A stretch of DNA of 37,187 bases from a virus (lineage: Duplodnaviria; Heunggongvirae; Uroviricota; Caudoviricetes): IMG/VR virus record IMGVR_UViG_3300014204_000132; one strand, given 5' to 3'. Shown one piece after another: positions 19,554-36,718 of this stretch. Numbering within the stretch: the stretch's first letter is position 1; every line of letters begins with the position of its first letter. Made by a program: the position numbers and the translations under genes. The notes beneath the pieces were generated by a model. It was given only the letters and a program-made list of their open reading frames with translations. It was not told the origin of the DNA and did not search any database.

Positions 19554-21185
19554 ATGAATTCAAAATTAAATATTGGGATAACAATTTTTTTACATGAAGA
19601 AAATCAAAGTGTATGGACTAATGGTATATTACAGAATGCGATTTTTTTGGCAAAAACGTTTCAAAATTCTACTCAAAATTATAACGTATATCTTGTCAAC
19701 ACGAGTAATATTAATATTACAAATATATTGGGGTGGGATTTGATAGAATATAAAACAGTCCAATTTAATGATATAAAAGATAAATTAGATATTATATTTC
19801 CTTTAGGTGGTTCAATCGATAAACCAACAACAGAATATTTAAGAAATAGAGGATGTAAAGTAGTTCCATATAAATGTGGTAACGAATATGTGATTAGTAT
19901 GGAAAATATCATATTTAATCGCCAAGATATTGTAAAAGATTACCCAGAGGTAGACCAAATATGGAATATACCTCAAATGGAAAATACAAACCATCATTAC
20001 TGGAGAGTTTTACACAATGCTGAGACAATCACTATACCTTTTGTGTGGAATCCTTTATTTTTAAATAGCCATATAGATGAATTAAAAAAACAGGGAAAAA
20101 ATCCTTATTACATACCGAGTAAACTAAGTAAAAAAATTTCAATATTCGAACCCAATATAAATGTTTATAAATTTTTAATGTATCCGATGTTAATTATAGA
20201 AGATGCATATAGGGAACACCCAGAACTATTTCATAGTGTTAAAGTAACAAACACCCAAAAAGTTAGATTGACTAAAGAATTAACTTCTATTATGAATCAT
20301 TTGACAATAGTTCAAGATAAAAAGACCACATTTGAAAATAGATTCCCAATTACATGGTTTTTAACTGAACATACTGATGTAGTGGTATCTCATCAATGGG
20401 AAAATGCTTTAAATTATGCCTATCTGGATGCTATATATTTAGGTTATCCATTAGTACATAATGCTCATTTATGTAAAGATTGTGGATATTACTATGAAGG
20501 GTTTAATGTGACAGAAGGAAAAAAACAATTATTATATGCTTTAACCGAACACGATAATCATCTTGAAGAATATGATGAAAAAAATCAAAAAGTATTAGAT
20601 AGATATTCTACCGATAATATTGATGTTATAAAAAAATATGATGAACTAATATGTAATCTGGTTAATACTAAATCCATAGCATCGAATTTTGTTCCTACAA
20701 GTTTTGGTGCTTTTAAGTCAGAAATAAAGGATTATATATTAAGTAATTTTAACACTGGTGTTACCATATTAGATGTTGGTGCTGGTTGTGGGACGTATTC
20801 TAATATTCTTAGTGAATATGAAAATATCGATGCTGTTGAAATTTATGAACCATACATAAAAAAATATAAATTAAAAACAAAATATAGAAAAGTTTATACA
20901 ACAAATATAATAGATTTTAATTTCGATTATTATGATATAATCATAATGGGTGATATTTTAGAACATTTGACTATTGAAGATGCACAAAATCTCATAAACA
21001 AATTATATGATAAATGTAAACAACTAATAATTAGTGTACCATTTCTTATGAAACAATTCGGTCTCGAAAATAAAAACGAAGACCACATTCAAGATGATTT
21101 AACAGAAGAAATAATGGTTAGAAGGTATCCGAATTTACAAAAAAATTGGAGCAATAATACTATTGGTGTTTATTTTAAAAAATAA
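19554..21185 (+). CDS. DUF2827-like putative GT-B glycosyltransferase fused to a class I SAM methyltransferase
   Basis: VWTNGILQN, IFEPN and VVSHQWENALNYAYLDAIYLGYPLVHNA; C-terminal ~170 aa carry ILDVGAGCG, AVEIY and GDILEHL. Confidence 0.75.
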   Translation: MNSKLNIGITIFLHEENQSVWTNGILQNAIFLAKTFQNSTQNYNVYLVNTSNINITNILGWDLIEYKTVQFNDIKDKLDIIFPLGGSIDKPTTEYLRNRGCKVVPYKCGNEYVISMENIIFNRQDIVKDYPEVDQIWNIPQMENTNHHYWRVLHNAETITIPFVWNPLFLNSHIDELKKQGKNPYYIPSKLSKKISIFEPNINVYKFLMYPMLIIEDAYREHPELFHSVKVTNTQKVRLTKELTSIMNHLTIVQDKKTTFENRFPITWFLTEHTDVVVSHQWENALNYAYLDAIYLGYPLVHNAHLCKDCGYYYEGFNVTEGKKQLLYALTEHDNHLEEYDEKNQKVLDRYSTDNIDVIKKYDELICNLVNTKSIASNFVPTSFGAFKSEIKDYILSNFNTGVTILDVGAGCGTYSNILSEYENIDAVEIYEPYIKKYKLKTKYRKVYTTNIIDFNFDYYDIIIMGDILEHLTIEDAQNLINKLYDKCKQLIISVPFLMKQFGLENKNEDHIQDDLTEEIMVRRYPNLQKNWSNNTIGVYFKK

Positions 21186-21198
21186 AAATATTATTTGA

Positions 21199-22323
21199 AT
21201 GGCAACTGCAACAATGAAGAATATTGCTATCACATTAGGTGTTAGAAGTAATAATGAAGGTTTATGGATAAATGGCATCAAACTAAATGGTTTATATTTA
21301 GCTAAACTTCTTAAAAACATTGGGAAATATAACGTATTTTTCGCTAATACAACAAGTAAAGAATTTACTCAATTCGCATTTGATACAAAAGAATTTCCAG
21401 TACATCATATTTCGGATGTAAAAGATGATATTGATATATTAATATCTCTCGGTGGACAGATTGACCAATCTATGACTACATACTTAAAGAAAAGAAAAAC
21501 AAAAATAGTTTCGTACAAATGTGGTAATGAATATGTTATTAGAATGGAAAATGTTTTATTTAATCAAGATGTTGGAAGTTCTATAATATGGTGTAATCCA
21601 GATTACGATGAAATATGGTGTGTACCACAGGTTTTTGAACAAAATAAATATTATTTCAATAGATTTCATAAAAATAAAAATGTAAAATCTGTTCCGTTTA
21701 TATGGGATTCTTTTTTAATTGATGAATTAGCATCATCATTAAAAAATAACCCTCGTTACACACCAAAAAACACACCTAAATCCATAGCAATACTTGAACC
21801 TAATCAAGATGTTTTGAAGTATGCTATGTATCCGATTTTGATTGTTGATGATGTATATGAACAAAGACCAGAATTAATAGAGAAATTATTTGTTACTAAT
21901 ACATTTAATATTCGAAAACATAAAGTTTTTGTGGAATACATGAATCATTTAAGTATTGTTAAAGACCATAAGGCAACATTCGAGGATAGATTTTCAACCG
22001 TTGAATTTTTAGCCGATTATGCTGATATAGTCGTCAGTCACCAATGGGATAATCCTTTGAATTATTTTTATTTGGATGTGGCTTACCTTGGACACGCTAT
22101 ATTACATAACGCCCACATGTGTAAAAATGTTGGATATTATTATGAGGGGTTTAATGGTAAAAATGCTACTGATAAATTAATATGGATTTTGGAAAATCAC
22201 GACAAGAATCTGGAAGAATATAATGAAAGAAATAAAAAAACAATTTTCTCTTATGATGCTGATAATGAAATAAATATAAGCATATATAATAATTTGTTAA
22301 AAACACTAATAAAAAAATATTAG
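21199..22323 (+). CDS. DUF2827-like putative GT-B glycosyltransferase
   Basis: LWINGIKLN, SYKCGNEYVI, ILEPN and VVSHQWDNPLNYFYLDVAYLGHAILHNA. Confidence 0.75.
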   Translation: MATATMKNIAITLGVRSNNEGLWINGIKLNGLYLAKLLKNIGKYNVFFANTTSKEFTQFAFDTKEFPVHHISDVKDDIDILISLGGQIDQSMTTYLKKRKTKIVSYKCGNEYVIRMENVLFNQDVGSSIIWCNPDYDEIWCVPQVFEQNKYYFNRFHKNKNVKSVPFIWDSFLIDELASSLKNNPRYTPKNTPKSIAILEPNQDVLKYAMYPILIVDDVYEQRPELIEKLFVTNTFNIRKHKVFVEYMNHLSIVKDHKATFEDRFSTVEFLADYADIVVSHQWDNPLNYFYLDVAYLGHAILHNAHMCKNVGYYYEGFNGKNATDKLIWILENHDKNLEEYNERNKKTIFSYDADNEINISIYNNLLKTLIKKY

Positions 22324-22325
22324 AA

Positions 22326-23138
22326 ATGAAAAATATTGATGGTATATCAATAGTTATGGCATATCATAACAGGAGAGAGCAATTAATTAGAACTTTAAAT
22401 TCTATTAACGAAACTAAATATGATAGGTCGAAATTAGAAATTGTTATCATTAATGATAATAGTTTAGAACAACATTCAATAGACGATTTACCATCTTTAT
22501 TTAATAAACTGAAGTTTCGTATTTTTAATATTAAAAAAGAACAGAAGAAATGGACTTGTTCATGTGTCCCATATAATATAGGATTTAATCATGTGCAATA
22601 TAATAAAATTCTTTTCCAGAATCCAGAATGTTATCACATGGGTGATGTATTATCCGATGTTGATATAAATTTAACTGATGAAAATTATATACCATATGCA
22701 TGTTATTCTATTGGAGAAAAAGAATATAATGTTAATAATTATAACAAATTAGTGTATAATAATTGTCAGCCACCACATGCATGTTCTAATGGTTGGTATA
22801 ATCATTCTGTAATAAATCCAAAAGGGTATCACTTTGCTGCTGCAATAACTACCAATAATTTATATAAAATTGGTGGATTTGATGAAGAATATAAAGATGG
22901 GGTTGCGTTCGATGATAATGAAATATTAAGAAGAATCAGATTATTGGATTTAAATATAATAATTATAAATTCACCATATGTTATTCACCAGTGGCACGAT
23001 AGTGTTTATCATTTTAATGCATTAACACCCGAAGATGAAAAAAAACACACTTTAGAGTTATTTTATAAAAATCAAGCTATTTTTGACAGAGGTGTGTCAG
23101 ATTATAAAGTCTATAATAATTTTTACTTTAAAACATGA
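22326..23138 (+). CDS. GT-A glycosyltransferase (GT2-type N-terminus, GT7-like C-terminal motif)
   Basis: SIVMAYHNR, IVIINDNS, QNPEC and GGFDEEY..G.AFDDNE. Confidence 0.85.
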   Translation: MKNIDGISIVMAYHNRREQLIRTLNSINETKYDRSKLEIVIINDNSLEQHSIDDLPSLFNKLKFRIFNIKKEQKKWTCSCVPYNIGFNHVQYNKILFQNPECYHMGDVLSDVDINLTDENYIPYACYSIGEKEYNVNNYNKLVYNNCQPPHACSNGWYNHSVINPKGYHFAAAITTNNLYKIGGFDEEYKDGVAFDDNEILRRIRLLDLNIIIINSPYVIHQWHDSVYHFNALTPEDEKKHTLELFYKNQAIFDRGVSDYKVYNNFYFKT

Positions 23139-23815
23139 ATAAGCAAAAAATAAAATATATTCAACTTTATGCCGAGCGACACACTGGTTCAAAATGGTTC
23201 GAAGAATCGATTAAACAATATTTAGTCATTAATCAGTATGTGTTTACATTAGGTTGGAAACATTTTTTCCCGAACATTTATAGTATTGATACAGCTAATT
23301 TAAATGAATATCTTTTTATTGTATTAAGTAGGAATCCGTATGACTGGGTTAAGTCTATGCAAGAAAACCCACATCATGCTCACATTTCATTAATGAATAA
23401 ATCTTTAAATGAATTTATTAAATTGCCTTGGGTAAGTATGCATGATAAAATCTTAAATAAAGAAAACGGATTATATCAAAAAAAAGAAATGTTTTTTGAA
23501 AGGAATCCTCATACATTATTAAACATATCCAATGTAATTGAATTGAGAAATTTAAAGAATCAATATTTTATTAATTTAAAAAACATTGTTCCCAATATTA
23601 AATATATTAGATATGAAGATATATGTTCAGATTTAATTGAGGTGATGAACACTATATCAGAAGAATATTTAATATACAAAACTAATAGAAGAACCTCTTA
23701 TAGTTCTATTCCAAAATTTGAAAAACAAATTGATGATGAATCATTGAAATTTATAAATGAAAACATTAACTGGGAATTGGAAGAATTCTTAGGTTATCAA
23801 AAAAGATTATTATGA
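23135..23815 (+). CDS. Sulfotransferase-like protein
   Basis: ERHTGSKW (5'-phosphosulfate-binding loop-like), RNPYDWVKS (3'-phosphate-binding-like) and RYED. Confidence 0.65.
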   Translation: MNKQKIKYIQLYAERHTGSKWFEESIKQYLVINQYVFTLGWKHFFPNIYSIDTANLNEYLFIVLSRNPYDWVKSMQENPHHAHISLMNKSLNEFIKLPWVSMHDKILNKENGLYQKKEMFFERNPHTLLNISNVIELRNLKNQYFINLKNIVPNIKYIRYEDICSDLIEVMNTISEEYLIYKTNRRTSYSSIPKFEKQIDDESLKFINENINWELEEFLGYQKRLL

Positions 23816-24456
23816 ATACATTTAAAAAATATCCAAAATCTAAAAAAAATGGATTTATTGTACAAAAGAGATTTTTTAGGTTGTTTAAGTTGTTTAAAAC
23901 CGACTTAAAAATAAATAAATCATCTATTAAGGAAGATATAGAAGACCATTTTGATTTTAGAATTGGGCAACTAATAAATGGAAGTAAAAGAATTGAAAAA
24001 ATTGAAGTAAAATCGATAAAAGGTATAACAAGAAAGGGTGGGATATCATTTGATTATACATGGATTGAATTTTATAATGTGAATGGTAATATAGGCTGGA
24101 TTAATGGAAAATCTGATAAGATTGCATTTGAAATAATAGATGGTTTTTTAATGGTTGGTAGAGCTGATGTTAAAAAACTTGTAGAAGATATGATTAAAGA
24201 TAATGATGTGGATATAAATGATTTTTATGGTTTTAGTGACAGTGAATATGATATAATTAAAAATAAAACAGCTTTAGAAAGAATATATAAATGGTATCGA
24301 AGACGTGGTAGAATAGATGTTATTGTATTAGTTCCAATTGAAGATATAAAAACTTTAAAACATGAAATTATACATGATGACCTCATTAAAATTGCAGAAG
24401 ATAAATATAAACAAAAACAAAAATGTTTGAAGCAGAAAAACGAGCTGGTGAATTAG
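23812..24456 (+). CDS. PD-(D/E)XK nuclease-fold protein, copy 1
   Basis: EDHFDF...KIEVKS; TWIEF..V.G..GWI.G..D.IAFE; paralog of ORF 24423. Confidence 0.6.
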   Translation: MNTFKKYPKSKKNGFIVQKRFFRLFKLFKTDLKINKSSIKEDIEDHFDFRIGQLINGSKRIEKIEVKSIKGITRKGGISFDYTWIEFYNVNGNIGWINGKSDKIAFEIIDGFLMVGRADVKKLVEDMIKDNDVDINDFYGFSDSEYDIIKNKTALERIYKWYRRRGRIDVIVLVPIEDIKTLKHEIIHDDLIKIAEDKYKQKQKCLKQKNELVN

Positions 24457-24896
24457 CAGAAGAAAAATTTGTACAATTATTTAAAAATAATGGTTTTACG
24501 GTAAATAAGACTGATTATAAAGATGATAAATATAATCATTTCGATTATACTGTCGAAAAAGATGGTGATATTAAAAAAATTGAGGTAAAAGCTGCCAAGA
24601 AAGATGATAGAAATGATGCTAAACCTTCATTTGAAATAACATGGATTGAATTAAAAGGTATTAAAGGTTATTCTGGGTGGTTATATGGCAAAGCAGATTA
24701 TTTTGCCTTTGAACAAAAAGATGGTTTTATTTTATCAACACGAAAAGATATAGTTGAGTTAATTTTAAGAAAATTAGTTGATAATAACTTCGAACGTGGT
24801 AAGAGTGTATATCAAATTTATAATAGAGAAGGTCGTGAAGACATATTGGTTAAAATATTATTTGACGACTTAGAAAATAAAATATATGTTAAATAA
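24423..24896 (+). CDS. PD-(D/E)XK nuclease-fold protein, copy 2
   Basis: GELAEEKF, NHFDY...KIEVKA and TWIEL..GWLYGKADYFAFE. Confidence 0.6.
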   Translation: MFEAEKRAGELAEEKFVQLFKNNGFTVNKTDYKDDKYNHFDYTVEKDGDIKKIEVKAAKKDDRNDAKPSFEITWIELKGIKGYSGWLYGKADYFAFEQKDGFILSTRKDIVELILRKLVDNNFERGKSVYQIYNREGREDILVKILFDDLENKIYVK

Positions 24897-26554
24897 TGGA
24901 TAAAAAATTAACTAAAATATCTAATGAAGTAGGATTTTCTTATATAATATCATATAGAGAAAATGATGGATATAGAAAAAAAGACTTAGAAGCAGTTATT
25001 GATTATGTTTTAAATTTTGGTTTTGAAAAATTTGAAATAATATTAATAGAACAAGATATAGAGGAACGTGTTAAAATTAAAAAAAATAAAAATATAAAGA
25101 AATTATTTCTTTATAATGATGGAGTTTTCAATAAAGGACTTGGTTATAATATCGGAGCTTTAAATGCTAAATATGAAGTTTTGGTTTTTTGTGATGCTGA
25201 CATCATCTTACCAAAAGATTTCTTTTTAAACGCATTAAACGTTAAAGATTTTGATGTAATTGACCCATATAAAAAGATTTATTATTATGATGAAATGGAA
25301 ACCGACAGAATGATAGAAGAAGGTTTCGAACGGTTGAGTGATAATATTGAAAAAGAAGTTCAATCATATGTTGTAACTGGTGGTGTATTTTTAATGAAAC
25401 GTGACAAATTTATTGAAATTAAAGGCTATGATGAGGAATGTTTTGGGTATGGACATGAAGATGATATTTTAGATAGTAAAATAAAAATACTGGGATATAA
25501 CACAATAAGAATGGATAACCAATATTGCATTCATTTATATCACCCACTATCATCTCCAGATTATTATGACCACGTTAAAACAAATAGAATGATGGCTAAC
25601 AACTATCGACAATTTACAAAAGAAAAGTTAATAGATAAAATAAATTCTACAAATACATTTGGTGAAGGAATTATAAAAGACACAACTGAAAATAATTATA
25701 GAGTTGAAATAAATAATGTAGTTAAAAATGTTGAAGAAAATGTTGAAGAAAATATAAATTATAAAGATGATATATTAGTAAAAGAAGAAAATTTTTTAAC
25801 TAAATCAAAAAAGATTTTCAATAATTTTTTCAATATAAATTCTAAAAAACCATTATCAATTATTATAACAGCATACCAAACACAAGATTATATTGAAGAA
25901 TGTTTGGATTCTATTGAAAACCAAACATATTTTAATGACCATAATAATTATGAAATTTTAGTTGGGTTTGATGATTGTCATGCAACTTTGAAAAAATTAA
26001 TAGATATTAGGCCATATTATAGAAATTTGAGAATATTTATGATGAATAGTAATATGGGTACATATATTACTTCAAATACTTTAATACGTATGGCAAAATT
26101 TGATAATATTATTCGATTTGATAGTGATGATGTTATGATGCCGAATATGATAAAAGAGATTGTCGAAAAATCTAATGATTGTGATTTGTTAAGATTCTCA
26201 TGTTACAATTTCACAACGAATATTAATGAAAAGATTAGTAATGTTGATAAATTGAAATATCCAGATGGTGTGGTTTTTTATAGAAAAAAAGTATTTAATA
26301 TAGCTGGTGGATATAAAGGTTGGAAGTGTGCAGCCGATACAGAACTCTTAAAAAGAATACAGAATTTTGTTAGAATAAAAGAAACTGGAACTTATTTATT
26401 TTATAGAAGAATTCATAATAATAGTCTAACAAAAAGAAAAGAAACCAATTTTAATAGTGAATTAAGAAACAATTATAAATCTCAAATTAGAGTTTATAAT
26501 ACAAATGAAAATATAAAAATTGATATAGAAACAAACTCATATATCGAATTTTAA
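24896..26554 (+). CDS. Two-domain GT-A glycosyltransferase (GT2 + GT2)
   Basis: Domain 1: YNIGA, VFCDADII, GYDE..GYGHEDD. Domain 2: SIIITAY, ILVGFDD, RFDSDDVM. Confidence 0.85.
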   Translation: MDKKLTKISNEVGFSYIISYRENDGYRKKDLEAVIDYVLNFGFEKFEIILIEQDIEERVKIKKNKNIKKLFLYNDGVFNKGLGYNIGALNAKYEVLVFCDADIILPKDFFLNALNVKDFDVIDPYKKIYYYDEMETDRMIEEGFERLSDNIEKEVQSYVVTGGVFLMKRDKFIEIKGYDEECFGYGHEDDILDSKIKILGYNTIRMDNQYCIHLYHPLSSPDYYDHVKTNRMMANNYRQFTKEKLIDKINSTNTFGEGIIKDTTENNYRVEINNVVKNVEENVEENINYKDDILVKEENFLTKSKKIFNNFFNINSKKPLSIIITAYQTQDYIEECLDSIENQTYFNDHNNYEILVGFDDCHATLKKLIDIRPYYRNLRIFMMNSNMGTYITSNTLIRMAKFDNIIRFDSDDVMMPNMIKEIVEKSNDCDLLRFSCYNFTTNINEKISNVDKLKYPDGVVFYRKKVFNIAGGYKGWKCAADTELLKRIQNFVRIKETGTYLFYRRIHNNSLTKRKETNFNSELRNNYKSQIRVYNTNENIKIDIETNSYIEF

Positions 26555-26570
26555 AAAAGAATTTTTTAAT

Positions 26571-27224
26571 ATGAATTTTACACATTTAATAGTAAGCAGA
26601 ATAAATATCCGATGGACTGAACATTCTAAAGATGAAAAATGGTTAAATAACCGTAAAACCATTCTTAATAATACATTAAGAGCATCAATTCAGGCTCAAA
26701 CAAATAAGAATTTTAAATTTGTAACTCTCTGGGGTTATGAACCCGAAGGTATGATTGAAAATGAATATACTATAAAGACTGAAGAAGTTGGATTAGAAAA
26801 TATTTTCAATGATATTGTACCTGAATTATATAAATTAATCGATGAAGATTATGTTTTAGTTACAAGAATAGATAGTGATAATTGTTTAAGTGATGATTTT
26901 GTTGATATACTTCAAAAAAATATTATAGAAGAAGCACCATATTATTATGATATTAAAAAAATGAATATATTTAATTTACTGACTAATGAAAAAAGAATTT
27001 GGAATGTTTCTAAAACCAGTGGATTTATTTCTGTTATGGAGAAAAAAGAGGATTTCATTTGTATACCATATAAATATAATCACTCAAAACTTGGTGAAGT
27101 TTATAGTGGTGTGGTTATTGACGATTTAAAAGTGTTGCTGAACGTCCACGAGGATAATGTAAAAGTTAAAATGATTGGTATACCAGCTAATTATGATATT
27201 GATAAATTTAATTTAAAACTATAA
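26571..27224 (+). CDS. Putative rhamnosyltransferase-family glycosyltransferase
   Basis: WL..R......TL.ASI.AQTNKNF and TRIDSD pattern. Confidence 0.65.
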   Translation: MNFTHLIVSRINIRWTEHSKDEKWLNNRKTILNNTLRASIQAQTNKNFKFVTLWGYEPEGMIENEYTIKTEEVGLENIFNDIVPELYKLIDEDYVLVTRIDSDNCLSDDFVDILQKNIIEEAPYYYDIKKMNIFNLLTNEKRIWNVSKTSGFISVMEKKEDFICIPYKYNHSKLGEVYSGVVIDDLKVLLNVHEDNVKVKMIGIPANYDIDKFNLKL

Positions 27225-27324
27225 AAAATTTTATTCGATTATTAAACAAAAATTATCATATTAACTATATATTTTATCACAGAACTCGGTTGTGTGAATA
27301 AATAATAAAAATTTAAGTTCAATA

Positions 27325-28122
27325 ATGAAAATATCATTAGTTACTGCTTATTATAATAGGAAACAATTATTCTTCAACACATTAAAATCTATTGAAAAAT
27401 CATCATTGAAGAAGGATTTAGAACTTATAGTAGTTGATGATGCATCAACAGATGACCAAAGGATTGAAGATTTTATCGATAAATTTGATTTAGATATAAA
27501 ATTATTAAGGATAGAAAAAAAAGATAAATGGTGGACAAATCCAAGTCTTCCATTTAATAAAGGATTTAAATTGGTTACTGGTGAAGTTGTTATCATACAG
27601 AATCCAGAATGTGTCCACATGGGTGACCTATTAAAAAATATTACTGAAAATATTAAAGATAATGTTTATTTAAATTTCGGGTGTTATTCTGTTGATGAAA
27701 AACTAACTTCTAAAATTAGTTATGTTTCTAAAAATGAATTTAATATACTTAAAATAAAATATTATATTGAACCTATGATTAATAGAGGTATAAATAGAGA
27801 CGGAGAAACAGCGTGGTATAATCATTCAAAGTATAGACCTCATCAGTTGCATTTTTGTTCAGCTATAACTAAAAAAGATTTATTTGATTTGGGTGGATTT
27901 GATGAACGATTTGCAAATGGAATAGCTTTCGATGATAATGAATTTTTGGTTCGAATAAAAAGAAAAAAAATGAATATAAAAATGGTTGATGAACCATTCG
28001 TCATTCATCAATATCATGGTAATACTAATTATAGTTCTAAGATAAATTTATTCAATAAAAATCGAGATATTTTTATCAACTATACATTGAAAGAAAATAA
28101 AATTAAAATACAGGATTTATAA
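27325..28122 (+). CDS. GT-A glycosyltransferase (paralog of 22326)
   Basis: AYYNR, IVVDDAS, QNPECVHMGD and GGFDERF..GIAFDDNE. Confidence 0.85.
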   Translation: MKISLVTAYYNRKQLFFNTLKSIEKSSLKKDLELIVVDDASTDDQRIEDFIDKFDLDIKLLRIEKKDKWWTNPSLPFNKGFKLVTGEVVIIQNPECVHMGDLLKNITENIKDNVYLNFGCYSVDEKLTSKISYVSKNEFNILKIKYYIEPMINRGINRDGETAWYNHSKYRPHQLHFCSAITKKDLFDLGGFDERFANGIAFDDNEFLVRIKRKKMNIKMVDEPFVIHQYHGNTNYSSKINLFNKNRDIFINYTLKENKIKIQDL

Positions 28123-28973
28123 TGATACCTAAAAGAATTTTTTTTTATTGGTCGGGTTCTGATTTATCTTGGATGAGATATATGACACTGTTTTCATTTA
28201 GACAATTTAACCCAGATTGGGACATAACTCTTTATATTTCCGACAATAAGAATAAGAATAAGTGGTACGGTAGAGAAGAACAAGATTTCTCTAATTATAA
28301 AGGGGTAAACTATTTATCACAGGTTGAAGAATTAAACATAAAAGTTCAAAAAATAAATTTACCAGATGATGTTAAAAACAAGGTTAAGGATTTATCACCT
28401 GTACATGAGAGTGATATATTCAGATATTATGAATTATTTTCTAATGGTGGAATATATGCCGATATGGACATTTTATTCTTTAGGCCAATTGATAAATTTT
28501 ATAAACAATTAATAGAAAATAATACTGATACACTAATTCATCAAGACACAGGGTTTATTACTATCGGATTCTTGGGTGCGGAAAGTGGTAATTCTTTTTA
28601 TAAGGATATATTAGACCATGCTTTAGACATAGAAAAGTATGATAACTATCAATCATTTGGTGTTGATTTAATTTATAGTATATACGGAACTAATCGTCAG
28701 AACCCATACATCATAGATAAAATACTACAAAAACATCCAGAATTAAATATTTTCAATTTAAAAAATGAAACTGTCTACAATTTCGACTGGACGATGATAG
28801 AATATAATAATCAATATGGGGTTGATATCAATAAATTTTCAAAAGAATCTATCGGGTATCATTGGTTTGGTGGGCATCCAATGTCACAGATGTTTAATAA
28901 TACTCTGAATGAAAAAAATTATGTGGATTATAATACAACGTTTTGTAAGTTGTGTAAAAATATTTTAAAATAA
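28122..28973 (+). CDS. DXD-motif glycosyltransferase (GT32/Gb3 synthase/OCH1-like)
   Basis: [10 protein letters not shown] and SDIFRY..L...GGIYADMD. Confidence 0.85.
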
Positions 28974-28974
28974 A

Positions 28975-29718
28975 ATGAAAAATAAATTTATTGTAATAGT
29001 ACCTGTTTATAATGCTGAACCATTCATTGAAAAATGTTTAAAATCTATACTAAATCAAACTTACAAAAATTTTGAATTGGTTGTAATAGATGATTGTTCA
29101 ACTGATAAAACCTATGAAGTAATTAATAAAGTTCATGCTGAATTTGGTAATTCTTTTAATGTATGTCAGAATCATATCAGAGTCGGTTCACCTCTGGCAA
29201 CTTTTATAAAAGGTATTGAATTCTTTTCTTTTAATAAAGAAGATATTTTAGTTACTGTCGATGGGGACGATTTTTTGTATGATAATTCAGTTTTCGAATA
29301 TCTGAATAACTCTTACCAAAATGAAAATATTTATATGACATATGGAAATTTTATTCCTTTCAGTGGAACATACGGTAAATTTTGTAAACCGATACCAGAT
29401 ACACAAACATATAGAAGAAGTGGTGCTTGGTATGCATCCCATCTTCGAACAGTTAAAAAGAAATTATTCGATTTAATAAACAAAGATGATTTAAGGGATT
29501 TTAATGGAGAATATTATAAGATGGCTGGTGATGCTGCATATATGTATCCTATAATTGAAATGGCTGGTAAGAATCATCTTTTATTTATTGATAAAGTGTT
29601 GTATGTGTATAATGACATGAATATTTTAAATGAGATGCATGTAAATACTAATTTACAATTAGAAATTGCAGCAGAAATAAGAAGTAAGACTCCGTACACT
29701 GAAATAAATAAAATATAA
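28975..29718 (+). CDS. GT2 glycosyltransferase
   Basis: [30 protein letters not shown] and VDGDD. Confidence 0.9.
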
Positions 29719-30527
29719 TGAATATTATAGTTTTTAGTAAAGATAGAGCAATGCAATTGGAGTTATTCATTAGAAGCTTCAATATATATGTTAAAAATCC
29801 AGATAAATATTGGATAAAAATTTTATACACATATTCTGATGATAAATTTAAAAACGGTTACGAAAAATTAATAAGTGAATCAAACGGAGATATATTGTGG
29901 AAAAAAGAAGAAAATTTCAAATCAGATTTAATAAATTTAATAAATCAATATGATGCATTCACTGTATTTTTTGTTGATGATATAATATTTAAAAACACGA
30001 TAGATTTTGATGATAAACAAAAAGAAATATTTGAACAAGATAATGAAATATTATGTAGAAGTTTAAGATTACAACCAGATTTAACACATTCATATGCATC
30101 TAAAACAAATATGGTTAATCCAATGTTCTTAGATAATAATATTTATTTGTGGAAAGGTGAAAGTGGAGATTATGGTTATCCAATGTCCGTAGATGGACAT
30201 ATTTTCAGAACGAATCAGATATTTCCCTATGTATTAAATTTACCTTATACAAACCCTAATTCATTTGAAGGTAATATGGCTATTAGACCAATAAATTTAC
30301 CAAAAATGATTTGTTATGATAAATCGATAATTATAAATAACCCTTGTAATAAAGTTCAAACAAATAATCCAAACTATCATGGTATTATTGATGTGAGAGA
30401 ACTTAATAAAAAGTTTTTAGACGGATTTATTATTAGTTTAGAAAATATTGATGGTTTAAAAAATAATGCATGTCATCAGGAAATAGATTTGATTTTTAAA
30501 AATAAAAATAAAAAAAATGTTACTTAA
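29718..30527 (+). CDS. GT-A-like glycosyltransferase
   Basis: IIVFSKDRAMQL N-terminus and FFVDDIIF (DD motif); cluster context. Confidence 0.55.
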   Translation: MNIIVFSKDRAMQLELFIRSFNIYVKNPDKYWIKILYTYSDDKFKNGYEKLISESNGDILWKKEENFKSDLINLINQYDAFTVFFVDDIIFKNTIDFDDKQKEIFEQDNEILCRSLRLQPDLTHSYASKTNMVNPMFLDNNIYLWKGESGDYGYPMSVDGHIFRTNQIFPYVLNLPYTNPNSFEGNMAIRPINLPKMICYDKSIIINNPCNKVQTNNPNYHGIIDVRELNKKFLDGFIISLENIDGLKNNACHQEIDLIFKNKNKKNVT

Positions 30528-31137
30528 TCTTGAAAATTTAATAAAAAAATATAATCTGAATTTAAAAGGTGTTCTTCATATTGGCGCACACTTTGGTAGG
30601 GAAATGGATGCTTATAAAAAAGCTAATATTAAAAATGTTATGTTTTTTGAGCCTTTACCTCATACATTTGAAAAATTAAAACAATATGTTGGTGAAAATA
30701 ATGCAATATTTGTCAATAAAGCACTTGGTAATAAAATTGGAAAAGCTGATATGTATGTTGAATATGATAATGAAAGCCAATCATCATCTTTATTAGAACC
30801 CATGTTACATGTAACACAATACCCAAATATTAAATTTAATGATAAAATTGAAGTTGAAATTGATAAACTGGATAATATACCATACAATCGAAATGATTTT
30901 AATTTTATTAATATTGATGTTCAAGGATATGAATTAGAAGTTTTTAAAGGTGCTATAAAATCATTGAATACAATAGATATTATAATGACTGAAATAAATA
31001 GAGCTAACTTATATAAAGATTGTGTATTAGAAGATGAATTGGATGAATTTCTATTAAAACATTACAACTTCAAAAGAGTTGAAACATTTTGGGCTGGTGG
31101 TACTTGGGGTGATGCACTTTATATTAAAAATAAATAA
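30517..31137 (+). CDS. FkbM-family methyltransferase
   Basis: LHIGAHFG.E, FFEP, NKALG and INIDVQGYELEV..GA. Confidence 0.9.
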   Translation: MLLNLENLIKKYNLNLKGVLHIGAHFGREMDAYKKANIKNVMFFEPLPHTFEKLKQYVGENNAIFVNKALGNKIGKADMYVEYDNESQSSSLLEPMLHVTQYPNIKFNDKIEVEIDKLDNIPYNRNDFNFINIDVQGYELEVFKGAIKSLNTIDIIMTEINRANLYKDCVLEDELDEFLLKHYNFKRVETFWAGGTWGDALYIKNK

Positions 31138-31143
31138 AAGATT

Positions 31144-31866
31144 ATGATATCATTAGCAATACCAACATATAATAGACATTTATTAACATTAGAATCTTTT
31201 AACCAAGTGTTAGATAACGATTTTATTGAAGAAATTGTAATTATAGATGATAATTCTATTCAAACTTATTATGATACTCTTAAAAATGAAATTGATAAAT
31301 TAAACAATACGAAAATTAAAATATTTCGAAACGAAAGAAATTTTAAGCCATTATTAAATAAAACAATAACAGTAGAACATTGTAAAAATGATTGGGTCAT
31401 TTTATTGGATTCAGATAACATTATTGATGATTCTTATATTAATATTATTAAAAGAATAGATGCGAAAGATGATATATTATATTGTCCAGAAATCTTATAT
31501 CAAAACACAGCTAAAAATACAATTTCTCTTAATTATAAAAACTTCACTGGATTAGATATAAATAAAAATACCTTGAAGAATTTTATACATATAGAATTAT
31601 TCGATGCACTTTTAAATACTGGAAATTATTTTGTCAATAGAAATAATTATTTAAAAATTTTAAAAAATAAAGAAATCGATAATGAACTGAGCATTAATGA
31701 TGCTTTATATTTTTCATATCTGTGGTTAATGGAGGGATTTAAAATTGAGGTAGTACCCGATTTATCATATATTCATCGTGTCCACAATAATAGTTGGTAT
31801 ATAACTCACACTAATGAATGTCAATTATCAACAACAAAAATATTTGAAAAAATAAGAAATATGTAA
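31144..31866 (+). CDS. GT2 glycosyltransferase
   Basis: ISLAIPTYNR, IVIIDDNS, RNERN and LLDSDN. Confidence 0.85.
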   Translation: MISLAIPTYNRHLLTLESFNQVLDNDFIEEIVIIDDNSIQTYYDTLKNEIDKLNNTKIKIFRNERNFKPLLNKTITVEHCKNDWVILLDSDNIIDDSYINIIKRIDAKDDILYCPEILYQNTAKNTISLNYKNFTGLDINKNTLKNFIHIELFDALLNTGNYFVNRNNYLKILKNKEIDNELSINDALYFSYLWLMEGFKIEVVPDLSYIHRVHNNSWYITHTNECQLSTTKIFEKIRNM

Positions 31867-32723
31867 TGAATATAGTTGATGTTCCATCAAAGTTTATAGT
31901 TAAAACAAATCATGAATATCCACCATATAATAAAAAGGTATTTGAAGAATATTTTTTAGATTATTTTATAAAAAACAAAATAGAAACTGAATATTTTTAT
32001 TTACCGATTCTTTGGACGAATTTGTATATCAGTCGGGATTATGGTAATACTGATATGAACGATATTCAATTGTTTTTAAATAGTCTTGATACATCTAAAA
32101 AATATTTTACCATTGTTCAATATGATGATGGTATTCTTCAAAATATAGAACATGTGGATTTATTTGTATTTGGTCAGGGCGGTGGTGGTAAAAAAGTCGT
32201 ACCAGAAAAAAACATTGGTTATCCAATACCGTTGAATTGTAATGTCAATCCTCATATAAATAAAAATAGAGAGCGTGATATTTTTTGCAGTTTTGTCGGA
32301 GTGATTAATGGTAGACATTTTATTCGGGAAAAAATAAAATTTTTATATGAAAATGAATTCATATTAAAAGAAAGGGTCGGATATAATGTTTTCATTGATA
32401 TATTAGAAAGAAGTGTTTTTTCATTATGTCCGAGGGGGTATGGTGCAACATCATTTAGAATTTGTGAATCACTACAACATGGTTCAATTCCAGTTTATGT
32501 ATATGATAAACCTTGGATACCTTGGATTGGTGAATTCGATTTTAATGATATTGGAATATTAATTTCTGAAAATGAAATCGAAAATATTAAAACAATACTT
32601 TGTTCTAAAACAGAAAATGATATAAAAAAATATAGAACCAATGGTGAAATAATATATAAAGAATACTTTAGTTTCGCTGGGTGTTCAAATCAAATAATAA
32701 ATAAATTAAATAAATTATGTTAA
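31866..32723 (+). CDS. Exostosin-like (GT47) glycosyltransferase
   Basis: RDIFCSFVG and SVFSLCPRGYGATSFRICESLQHGSIPV, typical of the exostosin C-terminal motif. Confidence 0.8.
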   Translation: MNIVDVPSKFIVKTNHEYPPYNKKVFEEYFLDYFIKNKIETEYFYLPILWTNLYISRDYGNTDMNDIQLFLNSLDTSKKYFTIVQYDDGILQNIEHVDLFVFGQGGGGKKVVPEKNIGYPIPLNCNVNPHINKNRERDIFCSFVGVINGRHFIREKIKFLYENEFILKERVGYNVFIDILERSVFSLCPRGYGATSFRICESLQHGSIPVYVYDKPWIPWIGEFDFNDIGILISENEIENIKTILCSKTENDIKKYRTNGEIIYKEYFSFAGCSNQIINKLNKLC

Positions 32724-33403
32724 GTAATAATGATATTAATGATATTTATAACAACTATGTTAAAATAAATTACACAATAGAATATACTAATAAATACGTT
32801 CCTCTACCACTTCAATATAATAATAAACAATGGAAATGGGAAGGGAAAGATTTTCCCCGAATCATAGCTTTGCTCGAATTTAGAGAATATATGTTAGAAT
32901 ATAATAAAACTTTTAATGATGTTTTATCATTCAACGGAGATAGCGACCCAGAATATGAATATATGAAATATAATAATCTTCATAATTTTAATTATGAAGA
33001 AAATGAAAAATATGATTTACATAAAATTGATTTAGACAAAAAAGATTTTGATTTTGCAATGACGAATCAAACAATTGAACATTTATATAATCCTATTTTA
33101 GCCATAAAAAATATTTATAATCATTTGAAAATTGGTGGAATTTTTTATACAAATGTTCCAGCAGACAATGTGCCACATTCAACACCATTTCATTTTTATA
33201 CTGGTATTACACCTGTTGGTTTAGGCGCAATGGTTAAATTGGCTGGATTTGATATACTTAAAATTGGACAATGGGGTAATAAGGAGTATTTTAGACAAAT
33301 GCACGATAAATTATGGTCAGATTATACTTATTCTACTCGTGCTGGATATAATGACGTGAAATGCCCTATTATAACTTGGTGTTTAGCTATAAAAAATAAA
33401 TAA
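32717..33403 (+). CDS. Class I SAM-dependent methyltransferase
   Basis: FDFAMTNQTIEHLYNP..AIKNIYNHLKIGG; motif I is degenerate (VLSFNG). Confidence 0.7.
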   Translation: MLSNNDINDIYNNYVKINYTIEYTNKYVPLPLQYNNKQWKWEGKDFPRIIALLEFREYMLEYNKTFNDVLSFNGDSDPEYEYMKYNNLHNFNYEENEKYDLHKIDLDKKDFDFAMTNQTIEHLYNPILAIKNIYNHLKIGGIFYTNVPADNVPHSTPFHFYTGITPVGLGAMVKLAGFDILKIGQWGNKEYFRQMHDKLWSDYTYSTRAGYNDVKCPIITWCLAIKNK

Positions 33404-33408
33404 TTTGA

Positions 33409-34086
33409 ATGAAAATAATAGTATTAGTTTTATCTTCTAATAATACCAAATATAATATTTTAAATGAAACGATAAAAAAAACTTGTTTTTCTGAAAATGA
33501 TAACGACATTGAAATATTTTATTATTACGGAAATTCTGATAAATTATATCAAGAAAATGAAAATATATATTGTCCTGTTGAAGAAACTGTATCTAATATT
33601 GGGAGGAAAACAGTTTCTGTGTTTGAATGGGTGTTGAATAATAAAACATTTGATTATATATTTAGAACAAATGAGTCGTCATATATTGATTTATATAATC
33701 TGAAAAAGTTTATAGAAAATAAACCGAGAACTAATTTTTATTGTGCCAACCCCATATTTGTTAATGGGTTGTGGGTAGGTGCTGGGGTATATTTTTTATC
33801 AAAAGACGTTGTTGAAATGGTTTCAAAATATAAACAAAATATACATCATGAATTACCTGACGATGTTGCATTAGGTTTTTTAATGCACGATTTAAAAATA
33901 TCCTTATTTGAAATGACAAAAGAAACATTGGGTACTTGGGATAATATTGATTTTTTTAATTTAACAGAAGATAAAATAGATTTTACACAATTTTATTATA
34001 GATGCCGTTGTCATGATAGAATGGATGATATTAGAATAATGAAAAAACTTCATGAAATGATAAAAAGAAAACACACACATGAGTGA
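33409..34086 (+). CDS. GT31/fringe-like glycosyltransferase
   Basis: FDYIFRTNESSYI, GAGVYFLSKDVV and PDDVALG. Confidence 0.65.
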   Translation: MKIIVLVLSSNNTKYNILNETIKKTCFSENDNDIEIFYYYGNSDKLYQENENIYCPVEETVSNIGRKTVSVFEWVLNNKTFDYIFRTNESSYIDLYNLKKFIENKPRTNFYCANPIFVNGLWVGAGVYFLSKDVVEMVSKYKQNIHHELPDDVALGFLMHDLKISLFEMTKETLGTWDNIDFFNLTEDKIDFTQFYYRCRCHDRMDDIRIMKKLHEMIKRKHTHE

Positions 34087-34855
34087 TTATTGTATTATAT
34101 TAATGACTAATAAGCCGTATTTAGAAAAAGCTTTAGATACGATAAATCAAATCAGGAAAATAGGACTGTATGAAAAAGATGTGGTATTATTAATTGGTGA
34201 TGATTTGAAAGATGATAATAATATTAAGAATGTAGAAAATTATAATACAATTATAAAATATTTTCCAGAATTTGATAGAAGTGATATAATCAAAGAATTA
34301 AGATATAAACCCATAAGCCTTGATGGTAGAGAGGTAAATAAAATATTTCAATGGCATAAAATTCATTGTTTTGACGTATATTTTAAACAGTGGAAAAAAT
34401 GTTTATATGTAGATAGTGGTATGAAAATTTTTAAACCTATTGATAAAATAATATCATTAGATTGTACAAATGTTTTATTGGCACATTCTGATGCGTATCC
34501 TATGTATGATTGGAAATTAAATGTGCAATTTGATTATTTTTATTTTAAAGATTTATATAATGAATTAAATGAAGAATATGATTTAAATATAGATTATTTC
34601 CAATCTGGTATCTTATTATATGATACTAATATAATAACTGACAATACTAAAACAGATTTGATAGAATTATCTTATAAATATATCAATTCAAAAACAAACG
34701 AACAGGGGGTATTAAATATATATTTTAATTGTATTAAAAAAATTTGGAAACAAATAAAAATAAAAGATGATGAAACCCATTACTACGATTATTGGGAAAG
34801 GTATAATTTGAAATGTAGTGATTATATTATGTTAAAGTATCCAAAAACAATTTGA
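34079..34855 (+). CDS. GT8-like glycosyltransferase
   Basis: KLH-like HKIHCF, CLYVDSG, FQSGILLYD and NEQGVLN. Confidence 0.7.
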   Translation: MSDYCIILMTNKPYLEKALDTINQIRKIGLYEKDVVLLIGDDLKDDNNIKNVENYNTIIKYFPEFDRSDIIKELRYKPISLDGREVNKIFQWHKIHCFDVYFKQWKKCLYVDSGMKIFKPIDKIISLDCTNVLLAHSDAYPMYDWKLNVQFDYFYFKDLYNELNEEYDLNIDYFQSGILLYDTNIITDNTKTDLIELSYKYINSKTNEQGVLNIYFNCIKKIWKQIKIKDDETHYYDYWERYNLKCSDYIMLKYPKTI

Positions 34856-34860
34856 TAATT

Positions 34861-35463
34861 ATGGAGCATTTTATAAAAAATTTATTTAAATACATAAACC
34901 ACAGAGACGGATTCTATATAGAATGTGGTGCAAATGATGGTGTATTTTATAGTTATACATATGAATTGGAAAAATTAAATTGGAATGGAATATTAATAGA
35001 ACCATCAATAAAAGCTTTTGATGAATGTATTAAGAATCGTTCTAAAAATAATTTTTTTTATAATTGTGCTTTAGTTTCTTCTGATAATATTAAAGAAATA
35101 TACGGAGATTTTGATGGTTCATGTATGTCAAGTGTTAATGGTGACAGATTAAAAAGACAGCCCCAGACAAAAGTGGAATGTAGAACATTGACATCTATAT
35201 TGAAAGAGTTAAATATAAGTAACATAGATTTATTTAGTTTAGATGTGGAAGGGTATGAGATGGAAGTCTTAAAAGGACTGAATTTTAATATTTATAGTCC
35301 TCAATATATTTTAATAGAAGTGTATGAAAATAATAAAAATGAAATTTTTTCTTTCATGACTAAAAATAATTATGATTATGTAGATAATATAACAGGTTAT
35401 AATATTACAGATTTTCCATATTGGGATGGTACACACAACGATTTACTGTTCGTTAAAAAATAA
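34861..35463 (+). CDS. FkbM-family methyltransferase (ATG 34861 preferred over TTG 34852)
   Basis: YIECGANDG, GILIEP and IDLFSLDVEGYEMEVLKG. Confidence 0.9.
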   Translation: MEHFIKNLFKYINHRDGFYIECGANDGVFYSYTYELEKLNWNGILIEPSIKAFDECIKNRSKNNFFYNCALVSSDNIKEIYGDFDGSCMSSVNGDRLKRQPQTKVECRTLTSILKELNISNIDLFSLDVEGYEMEVLKGLNFNIYSPQYILIEVYENNKNEIFSFMTKNNYDYVDNITGYNITDFPYWDGTHNDLLFVKK

Positions 35464-35473
35464 TAAATATAGG

Positions 35474-36718
35474 ATGAGTGAATACAAGAAAAGAACTAAA
35501 TGTGCAATTTGTGGTGGAGAAGAATTTGTTACGGTATTAAATTATGGTGAAGTTTCATTAGCAGGTTTTTTTCCTAAAGAAGACCAATTAAATAATATAA
35601 AAACCTATGAGCTTAGTTTATTATATTGTCCTACTTGTCATTTACTTCAATCTAATAGTATTGTCGAAGCTGATTATTTGTTTAAAGATTATAGGTATTT
35701 ATCATCAGTTTCTTTACAGAAACATTTTAATGAATATTCTAAATATTTAATAGAATATTTTAATTTAAACTCTAATTCCAAAGTATTGGAAATAGGTTCT
35801 AATGATGGTGTTTTATTAAAACCACTTAATGATTCTGGAATACTTGCTAAAGGATTTGAACCATCAGACAATGTTTCTAAGATAGCAATAGACAGAGGGT
35901 GTGATATAATACATGACTATTTCAATTTTGAAAATGCTCAAAAATATTGTGTAAAAAATAGTTTTGATTTAATTACAGCTTCAAATACTTTCGCTCATGT
36001 TGATGATATACAATCAGTTGTTAAAGGTATTCATTATGCATTGAAAGAAGATGGATGTTTTATTTTTGAAGTTCATTATGGTAAAAATATAATTGAGGAA
36101 TTACAATATGATAATGTTTATCATGAACATATTTATTATTATACAGTGACAGCTCTGAAATATTTATTTGATATGAATAATATGACTATTGTTAATGTTG
36201 ATGAAATACCATTACATTCTGGTAGTATCAGGGTTATTGTATTTAATAAAGTTGAGCCTGTAAATGAAAAAATAGTTCAAGTTTTAGAAAAAGAAAAATT
36301 ATTGGGTGTTGATACACCAAAATATTACGATGATTTTAAAAATAGAGTGCTAATTCACCAACACGAATTATATAAATGTTTGATTGGTATTAAAAATAAA
36401 GGTTATAACATTGCTGGATATGGAGCATCTGGTCGTGCAAATATGTTATGTAATTTCAATAATATTGACAATACTCTTATTGATTATATAATTGATGAAT
36501 CACCTGAAAGATATGGTAGGTATATAAATAATATCCCCATACTTAGTAGCGATAAATTAAATATTAATACAGATTATATAGTCATATTTGCGTGGAACTA
36601 TTCAAAAATGATAATTTCTAAACTTATAAATAATTATGATTTTACTTATATCATACCTTTTCCAGATATAAGAATTATTAATCGTATAGATGAGATAGAA
36701 GATATAAATACGTTATAA
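35474..36718 (+). CDS. NDP-hexose C-methyltransferase (Zn-binding N-domain, SAM domain, C-terminal domain); ATG 35474 preferred
   Basis: CAICG...CPTC, VLEIGSNDG, HEHIYYY and GYGASGRAN match the EryBIII/TcaB9-type layout. Confidence 0.85.
   Translation: MSEYKKRTKCAICGGEEFVTVLNYGEVSLAGFFPKEDQLNNIKTYELSLLYCPTCHLLQSNSIVEADYLFKDYRYLSSVSLQKHFNEYSKYLIEYFNLNSNSKVLEIGSNDGVLLKPLNDSGILAKGFEPSDNVSKIAIDRGCDIIHDYFNFENAQKYCVKNSFDLITASNTFAHVDDIQSVVKGIHYALKEDGCFIFEVHYGKNIIEELQYDNVYHEHIYYYTVTALKYLFDMNNMTIVNVDEIPLHSGSIRVIVFNKVEPVNEKIVQVLEKEKLLGVDTPKYYDDFKNRVLIHQHELYKCLIGIKNKGYNIAGYGASGRANMLCNFNNIDNTLIDYIIDESPERYGRYINNIPILSSDKLNINTDYIVIFAWNYSKMIISKLINNYDFTYIIPFPDIRIINRIDEIEDINTL

Follow-up and report, generated by a model that had tools for sequence, protein, structure and literature searches.

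Why would a tailed phage carry some 17 kb of genes for building glycans and no recognisable machinery with which to prime or export them? The question is raised by positions 19554-36718 (hereafter the island) of a 37,187-nucleotide stretch of the IMG/VR virus record IMGVR_UViG_3300014204_000132, which we analysed as a whole and refer to as the window (G000:C1:294298-331484, minus strand). The source record (G000) comprises 675,678 bp with 27% G+C, and because it encodes 40 tRNA genes and a Terminase_6N large terminase, the genome is that of a tailed megaphage and not of a nucleocytoplasmic giant virus. We propose that this phage glycosylates its own virion fibres in the host cytoplasm, stepwise and through O-linkages, and that the process is primed by enzymes of the family DUF2827 (PF10933); this is the explanation that we consider probable. 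More tentatively, DUF2827 could be a family of protein O-glycosyltransferases, so far undescribed, with specificity for the SLST repeats of trimeric fibres, in Burkholderiales adhesins as well as in megaphage fibres. In megaphages of the Mahaphage clade it could prime a 'glyco-serotype' system of giant-virus scale, with ~22 glyco-genes, an own pathway to UDP-6-deoxy-L-N-acetylhexosamine (UDP-6-deoxy-L-HexNAc), a branched sugar with a 3-C-methyl group, O-methyl and sulfate modifications and a terminal cassette open to exchange, such that related phages would bear different fibre glycans, in convergence with the fibrils of the Megavirinae.

In the proposed mechanism, soluble phage enzymes would be active in the host cytoplasm during infection. 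An inverting 4,6-dehydratase/5-epimerase, an RmlD-like reductase and a WecB-like 2-epimerase would convert host UDP-N-acetylglucosamine (UDP-GlcNAc) to UDP-6-deoxy-L-HexNAc, and a TylCIII-type enzyme would C-methylate a nucleoside diphosphate (NDP)-4-keto-6-deoxyhexose. Three DUF2827 enzymes of the GT-B type would put the first sugars directly on Ser/Thr residues of SLST-type 18-residue repeats in the fibres encoded on both sides of the island, about eleven GT-A and GT47 glycosyltransferases (GTs) would lengthen these primers, and FkbM and class I methyltransferases together with a sulfotransferase-like enzyme would cap the glycans. The decorated fibres would join virions that exit by lysis, a route of release that would make a lipid carrier, flippase, polymerase and exporter unnecessary. 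The 3' third of the island would act as a swappable cassette, giving each related phage a different glycan, and the coat so formed might serve masking, stability or adhesion. If this is true, the largest phages coat their fibres with bacteria-like, lineage-specific glycans, as giant eukaryotic viruses do, and these glycans would matter for how hosts are recognised, how stable the particles are and how recognition is evaded.

DUF2827 genes and the repeat-bearing fibres

Three plus-strand genes of the window encode DUF2827 proteins (19554-21185, 21199-22323 and 15989-17110), which score 394, 354 and 252 bits against the family profile (cut-off 25), with profile positions 1-362 covered. The first-pass annotation, made from the letters of the window, had counted two of them and placed the bounds of the cluster at 19554 and 36718; these bounds were too narrow, as the third copy (15989-17110) lies upstream, between two fibre genes, and a trio of UDP-sugar genes lies beyond the window end. 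Together the three genes surround the fibre gene 17499-19439, and all three copies retain the 22 columns that are invariant in our family alignment (A1). The first gene of the island, 19554-21185, is a fusion in which DUF2827 (residues 7-366) is followed by a class I S-adenosylmethionine (SAM) methyltransferase domain (residues ~393-496). Matches of the latter half to Methyltransf_12, 23, 25 and 11 are below cut-off but concordant, and the same fusion is present in both related megaphages that were compared (G001 and G002). A sequence search of the PDB with DUF2827 gave nothing. The AlphaFold2 (AF2) model of 21199-22323, with a predicted local distance difference test score (pLDDT) of 91, has the GT-B fold of two Rossmann domains, and Foldseek matched it to the GT4 enzymes MshA, BshA, PglA and WclY at E ~1e-11. 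As modelled, DUF2827 is a GT4-like GT-B glycosyltransferase; MshA, BshA and PglA are retaining enzymes.

The association of DUF2827 with SLST repeats was tested in 80 bacterial loci from different species, mostly Burkholderiales, in which an open reading frame (ORF) bearing SL[ST]T motifs (SLST ORF) was sought within 10 kb. Such an ORF, with 5-155 motifs, is present at 59 of the 80 loci, and at 53 of these 59 no more than 1 kb separates it from a DUF2827 copy (median gap 283 bp). As in the phage, the number of DUF2827 copies is three at 49 of the 80 loci. The neighbouring ORF at a Variovorax locus carries 163 SLST motifs in 2,899 residues. In the Variovorax boronicumulans sequence (L027:1-8700), the annotated plus-strand gene (5,526 residues, no Pfam match) is the antisense of this giant minus-strand SLST ORF, in which 163 SLST motifs were counted and Ser+Thr make up 61% of the residues, and the public annotation of the plus-strand gene is likely a strand mis-call. 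DUF2827 has also been described in 2-3 copies beside trimeric autotransporter adhesins, for which cytoplasmic glycosylation was proposed (preprint 10.64898/2026.01.22.700529). The association gives DUF2827, a family of no assigned function, a concrete candidate substrate in the 18-residue SLST repeat, which is of relevance to the adhesins of Burkholderiales too, and makes an uncharacterised family a testable protein glycosyltransferase.

A midpoint-rooted tree of DUF2827 contains three old bacterial paralog groups, and every phage copy groups with the same one of these (100/100 split), so the phage triplet arose separately. A one-to-one orthology between its members and the three bacterial paralogs is thereby ruled out. 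The copy at 15989-17110 has a very long branch and composition is biased, and the tree is therefore read here without regard to a donor or a direction of transfer. Two further viral occurrences of the family were observed. On the IMGVR contig L018 (GVMAG-M-3300009149-7), binned as a metagenome-assembled genome of a giant virus, DUF2827 is 60% identical to that of the phage; either megaphage contigs were mis-binned as giant viruses or these glyco-genes are common to both groups. On a 232-kb phage contig (L020:4001-18590), DUF2827 is found among proteins of the DUF285/BspA-type leucine-rich repeat, Laminin_G_3 (two copies) and Calx-beta types, and it may serve other surface proteins there.

Serine and threonine are concentrated in the products of genes around the island. 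The six ORFs with the highest Ser+Thr content (27-36%, against a median of 11% for 301 ORFs of at least 200 residues) all flank it, at most 8 kb upstream or 21 kb downstream (hypergeometric P 9e-7, a value that ignores paralogy). The 18-residue repeat (DTSLSTAISTE.STRG) occurs in four proteins, namely the products of 13341-15446 and 17499-19439 together with a 768-residue and a 616-residue protein encoded downstream, the smaller of which has a C-terminal Peptidase_S74 intramolecular chaperone domain. This domain is a hallmark of trimeric phage fibres. The foremost candidate acceptor is the 646-residue fibre of 17499-19439 (plus strand), with ~13-20 copies of the repeat, here STAISTE.STRGxADTSL, and 34% Ser+Thr. 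A further candidate acceptor is the 701-residue fibre or decoration protein of 13341-15446 (plus strand), which contains DTSL[ES]T repeats, is the fourth most Ser/Thr-rich large ORF product of the genome and matches PHROG 2647 ('head decoration' / virion structural protein). Upstream of it, 11642-13297 (plus strand) encodes a 551-residue, Ser/Thr-rich (27%) virion fibre-like protein, which has 80-82% identity in the two relatives and shares the N-terminus MPKIQGKQ with the product of 5919-7694. Cultured phages have proteins annotated as 'tail fiber', 'head decoration' and 'capsid decoration' that match the N-terminal domain of the flanking proteins, and a PDB sequence search with the fibre protein returned a designed repeat protein only. 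By eye, a hairpin followed by a T-run can be read after the fibre gene, at ~19465-19495.

The island of glycan genes and its predicted sugar supply

The island contains 20 ORFs, all on the plus strand and nearly all abutting or overlapping (intergenic gaps of -38 to +100 nucleotides), and every ORF listed in the first-pass annotation was recovered at its position. The accompanying tally of 11 GT genes, two DUF2827 genes, five methyltransferase domains, one sulfotransferase-like gene and two nuclease-fold genes was reproduced by the combined use of Pfam, Atlas, motifs and fold searches. Above its curated cut-offs, Pfam recognises nine classical GT genes (ten GT domains), the two DUF2827 genes and four separate methyltransferase genes, the fifth methyltransferase domain being the one fused to the first DUF2827 gene. 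Five of the 20 ORFs have no Pfam family at these cut-offs. Among the GT genes with a Pfam family, those at 22326-23138 and 27325-28122 encode paralogous GT2 (GT-A) enzymes, and those at 28975-29718 and 31144-31866 encode further GT2 enzymes. At 24896-26554 there is a two-domain GT-A protein with two GT2 domains and Glyco_transf_7C (DxD motifs at residues 100 and 409), which is absent from G002, and at 26571-27224 a rhamnosyltransferase-like enzyme (Rhamno_transf, PF11316), found only in this phage among the three compared. The remainder are a GT32-type enzyme with a DXD sugar-binding region (Gly_transf_sug, 28122-28973), an exostosin-like GT47 enzyme (31866-32723) and a GT31-like enzyme (Galactosyl_T, 33409-34086), in which only the C-terminal motif is matched. 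The 100-nucleotide gap before 27325 is the only sizeable one inside the island, and a second transcription unit may therefore start there.

Two GT genes were assigned by other means. The product of 29718-30527 belongs to no Pfam family and is confidently modelled as a GT-A fold, with a TM-score (TM) of 0.9 to GT clusters of the Atlas, a DFD motif at residue 96 and TM 0.88 to part of a 563-residue Bacillota protein that also bears a GT-D (PF08759) domain. The product of 34079-34855 is a candidate GT8-like nucleotide-diphospho-sugar transferase and is offered as a lead only: its Atlas feature score is 0.99, PF01501 is assigned to 41% of the members of one neighbouring Atlas cluster, and no DxD motif was found in it. 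The nearest Atlas clusters of this protein, and of the sulfotransferase-like protein described below, are labelled mostly Nucleocytoviricota.

Predicted tailoring functions are spread along the island. FkbM-family methyltransferases are encoded at 30517-31137 and 34852-35463 (the latter with a TTG start and an alternative ATG at 34861), and a class I SAM methyltransferase (Methyltransf_23) at 32717-33403. The 226-residue product of 23135-23815 is likely a member of the sulfotransferase family, a reading for which the Atlas also gave a lead. With 11 homologues it shares the conserved segments ERHTGSKW, SRNPYDWxxS (RNPxDxxxS) and RYED, of which the P-loop-like ERHTGS is atypical; a PDB profile search returned sulfotransferases only, weakly (E 0.5), and the top 50 Foldseek rows are all sulfotransferases, also weak (best E 2.5e-3, TM ~0.4). 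The prediction of a methylated and possibly sulfated glycan is plausible from this enzyme content, and the product could be several shorter glycans instead of the one long glycan first imagined. The two genes at 23812-24456 and 24423-24896 are of another kind. They are paralogs with 30% identity and a D...E-V-K motif of the PD-(D/E)xK nuclease fold; the latter also has weak YraN/PDDEXK_5 matches. The former is absent from G001, the latter is present in G002 and not in G001, and because these genes are absent in one relative and single-copy in the other they look like mobile passengers, which they probably are, and not glycan enzymes.

Comparison with the two relatives, one of 640 kb with terminal repeats and the other a 422-kb contig, divides the island in two. 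The order of fibre genes, island and UDP-sugar genes is syntenic in both, and the 5' two-thirds of the island, with the DUF2827 pair, GT2, sulfotransferase-like, further GT2, GT32, GT-A and FkbM genes, is conserved at 53-91% identity. The 3' part (32717-36718) is a phage-specific cassette that opens with the class I methyltransferase and continues with the GT31-like, GT8-like, FkbM and C-methyltransferase genes. It is replaced in one relative by GT10 and FkbM genes, and in the other (G002) by GT32/TcdA-like, split transketolase, GT10, short-chain dehydrogenase/reductase (SDR) and FkbM genes. By analogy, this variation matches the lineage-specific glycan pattern of the Megavirinae and of O-antigen loci.

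The last gene of the cassette, 35426-36718, had been counted among the methyltransferases. Its 430-residue product has a zinc-binding N-terminal domain, a SAM domain and a C-terminal sugar-binding domain (PF08421, PF13489 and PF08484; Methyltransf_13, 23 and 14), and matches the mycarose 3-C-methyltransferase 4rv9 at E 4e-54 over residues 23-399, as well as TcaB9 and 5t64. This full-length match indicates that the substrate is a nucleotide-sugar and not the finished glycan, and the enzyme, an NDP-hexose 3-C-methyltransferase of the TylCIII/TcaB9 type, is predicted to make a branched-chain deoxysugar donor. A 4,6-dehydratase of 660 residues for NDP-sugars, encoded distantly from the island and split by an intein with a LAGLIDADG endonuclease (G000:C1:633578-635560; L013:79-2061, minus strand), is a candidate supplier of its 4-keto-6-deoxy substrate.

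The UDP-sugar trio is located at window-oriented positions 37189-43383 (G000:288102-294296). The WecB-type UDP-GlcNAc 2-epimerase (361 residues) begins 98 bases past the LPD11 ORF that closes the window, and scores 250 bits against wecB TIGR00236 (cut-off 210). The dehydratase (340 residues) scores 343 bits for Polysacc_synt_2, falls below the equivalog cut-offs of the PseB and FnlA models, and matches 2gn4 (E 8e-78) and Megavirus Mg534 (4tqg, E 6e-53); the RmlD-like reductase (277 residues) scores 69 bits for RmlD_sub_bind. Known trios of this kind are FnlA/B/C, CapE/F/G and Mg534/535/536, and PseB, FnlA and CapE are among the matches. From these similarities we predict a pathway from UDP-GlcNAc to UDP-6-deoxy-L-HexNAc, of the N-acetylrhamnosamine (RhaNAc), N-acetylquinovosamine (QuiNAc) or N-acetylfucosamine (FucNAc) type. 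A trio of the Mg534/535/536 type makes UDP-L-RhaNAc/QuiNAc in Megavirinae and FucNAc in bacteria (PMC10117803). Between the 2-epimerase and the dehydratase lies a MazG/dATP-dGTP pyrophosphohydrolase-like gene (L009:15944-16459, minus strand; window-oriented 39527-40042), which is kept in both relatives. In G002 the WecB-like epimerase and the RmlD-like reductase are enlarged to 819 and 701 residues, against 361 and 277 here, and may carry inteins too. A genome-wide search found no sugar nucleotidyltransferase (NTP_transferase) and a search of the phage for adenosine phosphosulfate (APS) kinase found none, so the activated precursors, the primary NDP-sugars among them, must come from the host.

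The absence of an exporter or multi-pass protein from the cluster was borne out, as none of the 20 island ORFs contains a 19-residue stretch with a Kyte-Doolittle mean of at least 1.6. Genome-wide searches that used positive controls gave no match, at E up to 0.1, to Bac_transf or to primers of the WecA/MraY type (Glycos_transf_4). Among all 1,252 ORFs scanned for hydropathy, just two encode proteins with at least eight spans, both ~200-320 kb from the island. One is a binding-protein-type ATP-binding cassette (ABC) permease (BPD_transp_1). The other is an 826-residue orphan with 14 predicted spans (G000:C1:523380-525860; L010) and no Pfam or PDB sequence match. Neither is recognisable as the flippase Wzx or the polymerase Wzy, hidden Markov models (HMMs) of which were not run directly.

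Alternative explanations and genomic setting

Several observations weigh against priming by DUF2827 on the phage fibres. No SLST ORF lies within 10 kb at 21 of the 80 bacterial loci or at three more distant phage loci (L019-L021), and the DUF2827 locus of Burkholderia seminalis (L026) has no SLST neighbour in 14 kb. Ser/Thr-rich 18-residue repeats also have a structural role in phage fibre stalks, so that richness by itself does not amount to acceptor function. The promoter-like motif T[TA]AATATATA[AGT], a candidate late promoter, is not found in its strict form before the first gene of the island, where only a degenerate form occurs. Finally, the peripheral GTs of O-antigen and capsule loci are also without membrane spans, and such enzymes could use host lipid-linked acceptors and exporters.

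The last of these points bears directly on an explanation in which the host surface is remodelled. Soluble GTs would then act at the inner membrane face on host-primed undecaprenyl-linked intermediates, and the host's Wzx/Wzy or ABC systems would carry a changed O-antigen or capsule outwards, perhaps as a block to superinfection. Membrane spans are usually missing from the GTs of O-antigen loci, and since peripheral GTs need none, the solubility of the island's products is compatible with this explanation; cassette variation, moreover, fits a serotype-like diversification equally well, and the 15-gene sugar and GT clusters of P-SSM2-type jumbo phages, polymorphic among relatives, have been read as diversifying the outer polysaccharide (Iyer et al. 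2021, PMC7824862). We nevertheless hold host remodelling to be unlikely. The genome yielded no priming enzyme, flippase, polymerase or Gtr-type gene (with the Wzx and Wzy HMMs not run directly), fibre genes stand on both sides of the island, and three DUF2827 genes stand at its head, whose bacterial homologues adjoin SLST adhesins and not lipopolysaccharide or capsule loci. The carrier-free, cytoplasmic assembly on virion proteins that the first-pass annotation had suggested is therefore favoured by the genome-wide lack of a primer, the fibre flanks and the DUF2827/SLST link, with the host-polysaccharide alternative weakened only.

If virion proteins are the acceptors, they might also be other than the SLST repeats, such as capsid, decoration or tail-tube subunits, with the proximity of fibre genes reflecting no more than placement in a structural module. 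The N-terminal domain of the flanking proteins does match 'head decoration' families, and mycobacteriophages carry their glycans at the C-terminal ends of capsid and tail-tube subunits (Freeman et al. 2023, to the extent cited in PMC12619734). The adjacency of DUF2827 and SLST ORFs at 59 of 80 bacterial loci, and a terminase ~265 kb away from the island, make this a rather improbable alternative. We give still less credence to a free or small-molecule-linked oligosaccharide, such as a glycosylated secondary metabolite or a signalling glycan. TylCIII/TcaB9-type enzymes make 3-C-methyl branched deoxysugars of a kind typical of antibiotic glycosides, and the G002 cassette holds a split transketolase, which would suit such a product; but no polyketide, nonribosomal peptide synthetase or aglycone genes were seen among the 56 kb examined, such pathways use far fewer than fourteen GT genes, and the fibre context speaks for another use. 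Hypermodification of DNA, in which the GTs would glycosylate modified bases to evade restriction, appears the least plausible of all and very improbable. Phage GTs that add diverse glycans to DNA are known (bioRxiv 2023.12.21.572611), two nuclease-fold genes lie in the island, and T4 alpha-glucosyltransferase is among the distant GT-B fold matches (rank 43). That match is generic, however, and the nuclease-fold genes, whose presence varies among the phages compared, are passengers; neither the island nor its immediate surroundings contain a DNA-modifying gene, and no Tet/JBP dioxygenase was found in the genome, in which dCMP/dUMP hydroxymethylase was not searched for.

The motif T[TA]AATATATA[AGT] occurs 145 times genome-wide. 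In 90 cases an ORF follows within 90 nucleotides, at a distance that peaks sharply at 30-33 nucleotides, and the terminase and several fibre genes are among these ORFs; examples in the window lie upstream of 1226, 3819, 5919, 10814 and 36822. A scan for sigma-70 and terminator consensus sequences gave fewer promoter-like sites than in shuffles. A search of sequencing runs located DNA of the phage in two DNA datasets, from landfill and groundwater, and no RNA dataset containing it was among the runs listed. A megablast search with 20 kb against cultured and deposited phages gave zero matches. Outside the window, at G000:C1:37754-37827, lies a suppressor tRNA with the anticodon TTA, which reads TAA, the codon that ends 827 of 1,049 ORFs; stage-specific stop-codon read-through or recoding may follow from this. 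The window also holds stand-alone small genes of the polyvalent-protein type (DUF4116, SprT-like, ART-PolyVal and LPD11, at 542-1135, 4406-5149, 9132-9650 and 36822-37091), several of which have an MK..F..F-type N-terminus that is found on none of the 20 island ORFs.

Relation to known glycosylation systems

Self-glycosylation of virions is established in giant viruses and, on a small scale, in mycobacteriophages, as are large sugar clusters in jumbo cyanophages. New features are the size of the system for a phage (~22 glyco-genes in 27 kb), a rare-sugar pathway that the phage itself encodes, the predicted tailoring by sulfation and with a branched sugar, a cassette that can be exchanged and, as tested here, the link between DUF2827 and SLST repeats. 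One close parallel is offered by the Megavirinae (Mimivirus, Megavirus and Moumouvirus), whose fibril glycosylation clusters comprise 6-33 genes, with nucleotide-sugar pathways and many GTs, and place rare, bacteria-like and often methylated sugars on virion fibrils with a clade-specific gene content (Notaro et al. 2022, PMC10117803). The phage likewise has GTs clustered with its own nucleotide-sugar pathway and a lineage-specific gene content, as seen in the 3' cassettes of G000, G001 and G002, and its trio of 340, 277 and 361 residues resembles the Mg534/535/536-type trio of 324, 270 and 376 residues that feeds the fibril glycans of Moumouvirus australiensis. It differs in being a tailed phage of a bacterial host, with DUF2827 enzymes as candidate initiators and SLST-repeat fibres as proposed acceptors.

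Virion glycosylation in mycobacteriophages reportedly involves few GTs per phage, without an own sugar pathway and without methyl or sulfo tailoring, whereas the megaphage has ~14 GT genes, tailoring enzymes and a UDP-sugar pathway. The common principle is that the targets of phage GTs would be structural proteins of the phage itself, modified inside the cytoplasm, with glycans that in mycobacteriophages shield the virion (Freeman et al. 2023, in the form cited by PMC12619734). Jumbo cyanophages of the P-SSM2 type also have large, polymorphic clusters (~15 genes), in which GTs of several families accompany SDR sugar enzymes (PMC7824862). Their clusters include sugar kinases and nucleotidyltransferases and are read as modifying host polysaccharide; here no nucleotidyltransferase was found, and fibres and DUF2827 genes accompany the island. 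O-antigen and capsule loci of the Wzx/Wzy/ABC types resemble the island in that co-oriented GTs are numerous, sugar-nucleotide genes are present and cassettes vary, and differ from it in that no primer was found and no flippase, polymerase or exporter was recognised in the phage.

In its proposed mechanism, the island also resembles systems that glycosylate bacterial adhesins. For the serine-rich repeat protein (SRRP) adhesins, paralogous GT4-like GT-B initiators (GtfA/GtfB) are encoded beside the Ser-rich repeat fibre, and cytoplasmic GT-A enzymes extend the glycan step by step before it is modified further (PMC7661464, PMC5578698). The likeness of the phage enzymes to GtfA/GtfB is at the level of the GT4-like fold, one of mechanism and not of membership, and is accompanied by the match of 29718-30527 to part of the GT-D-bearing Bacillota protein. 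Accessory Sec export would have no part in the phage system, and because no DUF2827 copy of the phage has lost an invariant residue, none resembles a degenerate, GtfB-like partner. The Burkholderiales DUF2827/adhesin loci (bioRxiv 10.64898/2026.01.22.700529) share with the phage the family itself (PF10933), its presence in 2-3 copies and the adjacent SLST-repeat fibre; what distinguishes the phage is that its DUF2827 genes are followed by a 17-kb island for the predicted extension and tailoring of the glycan.

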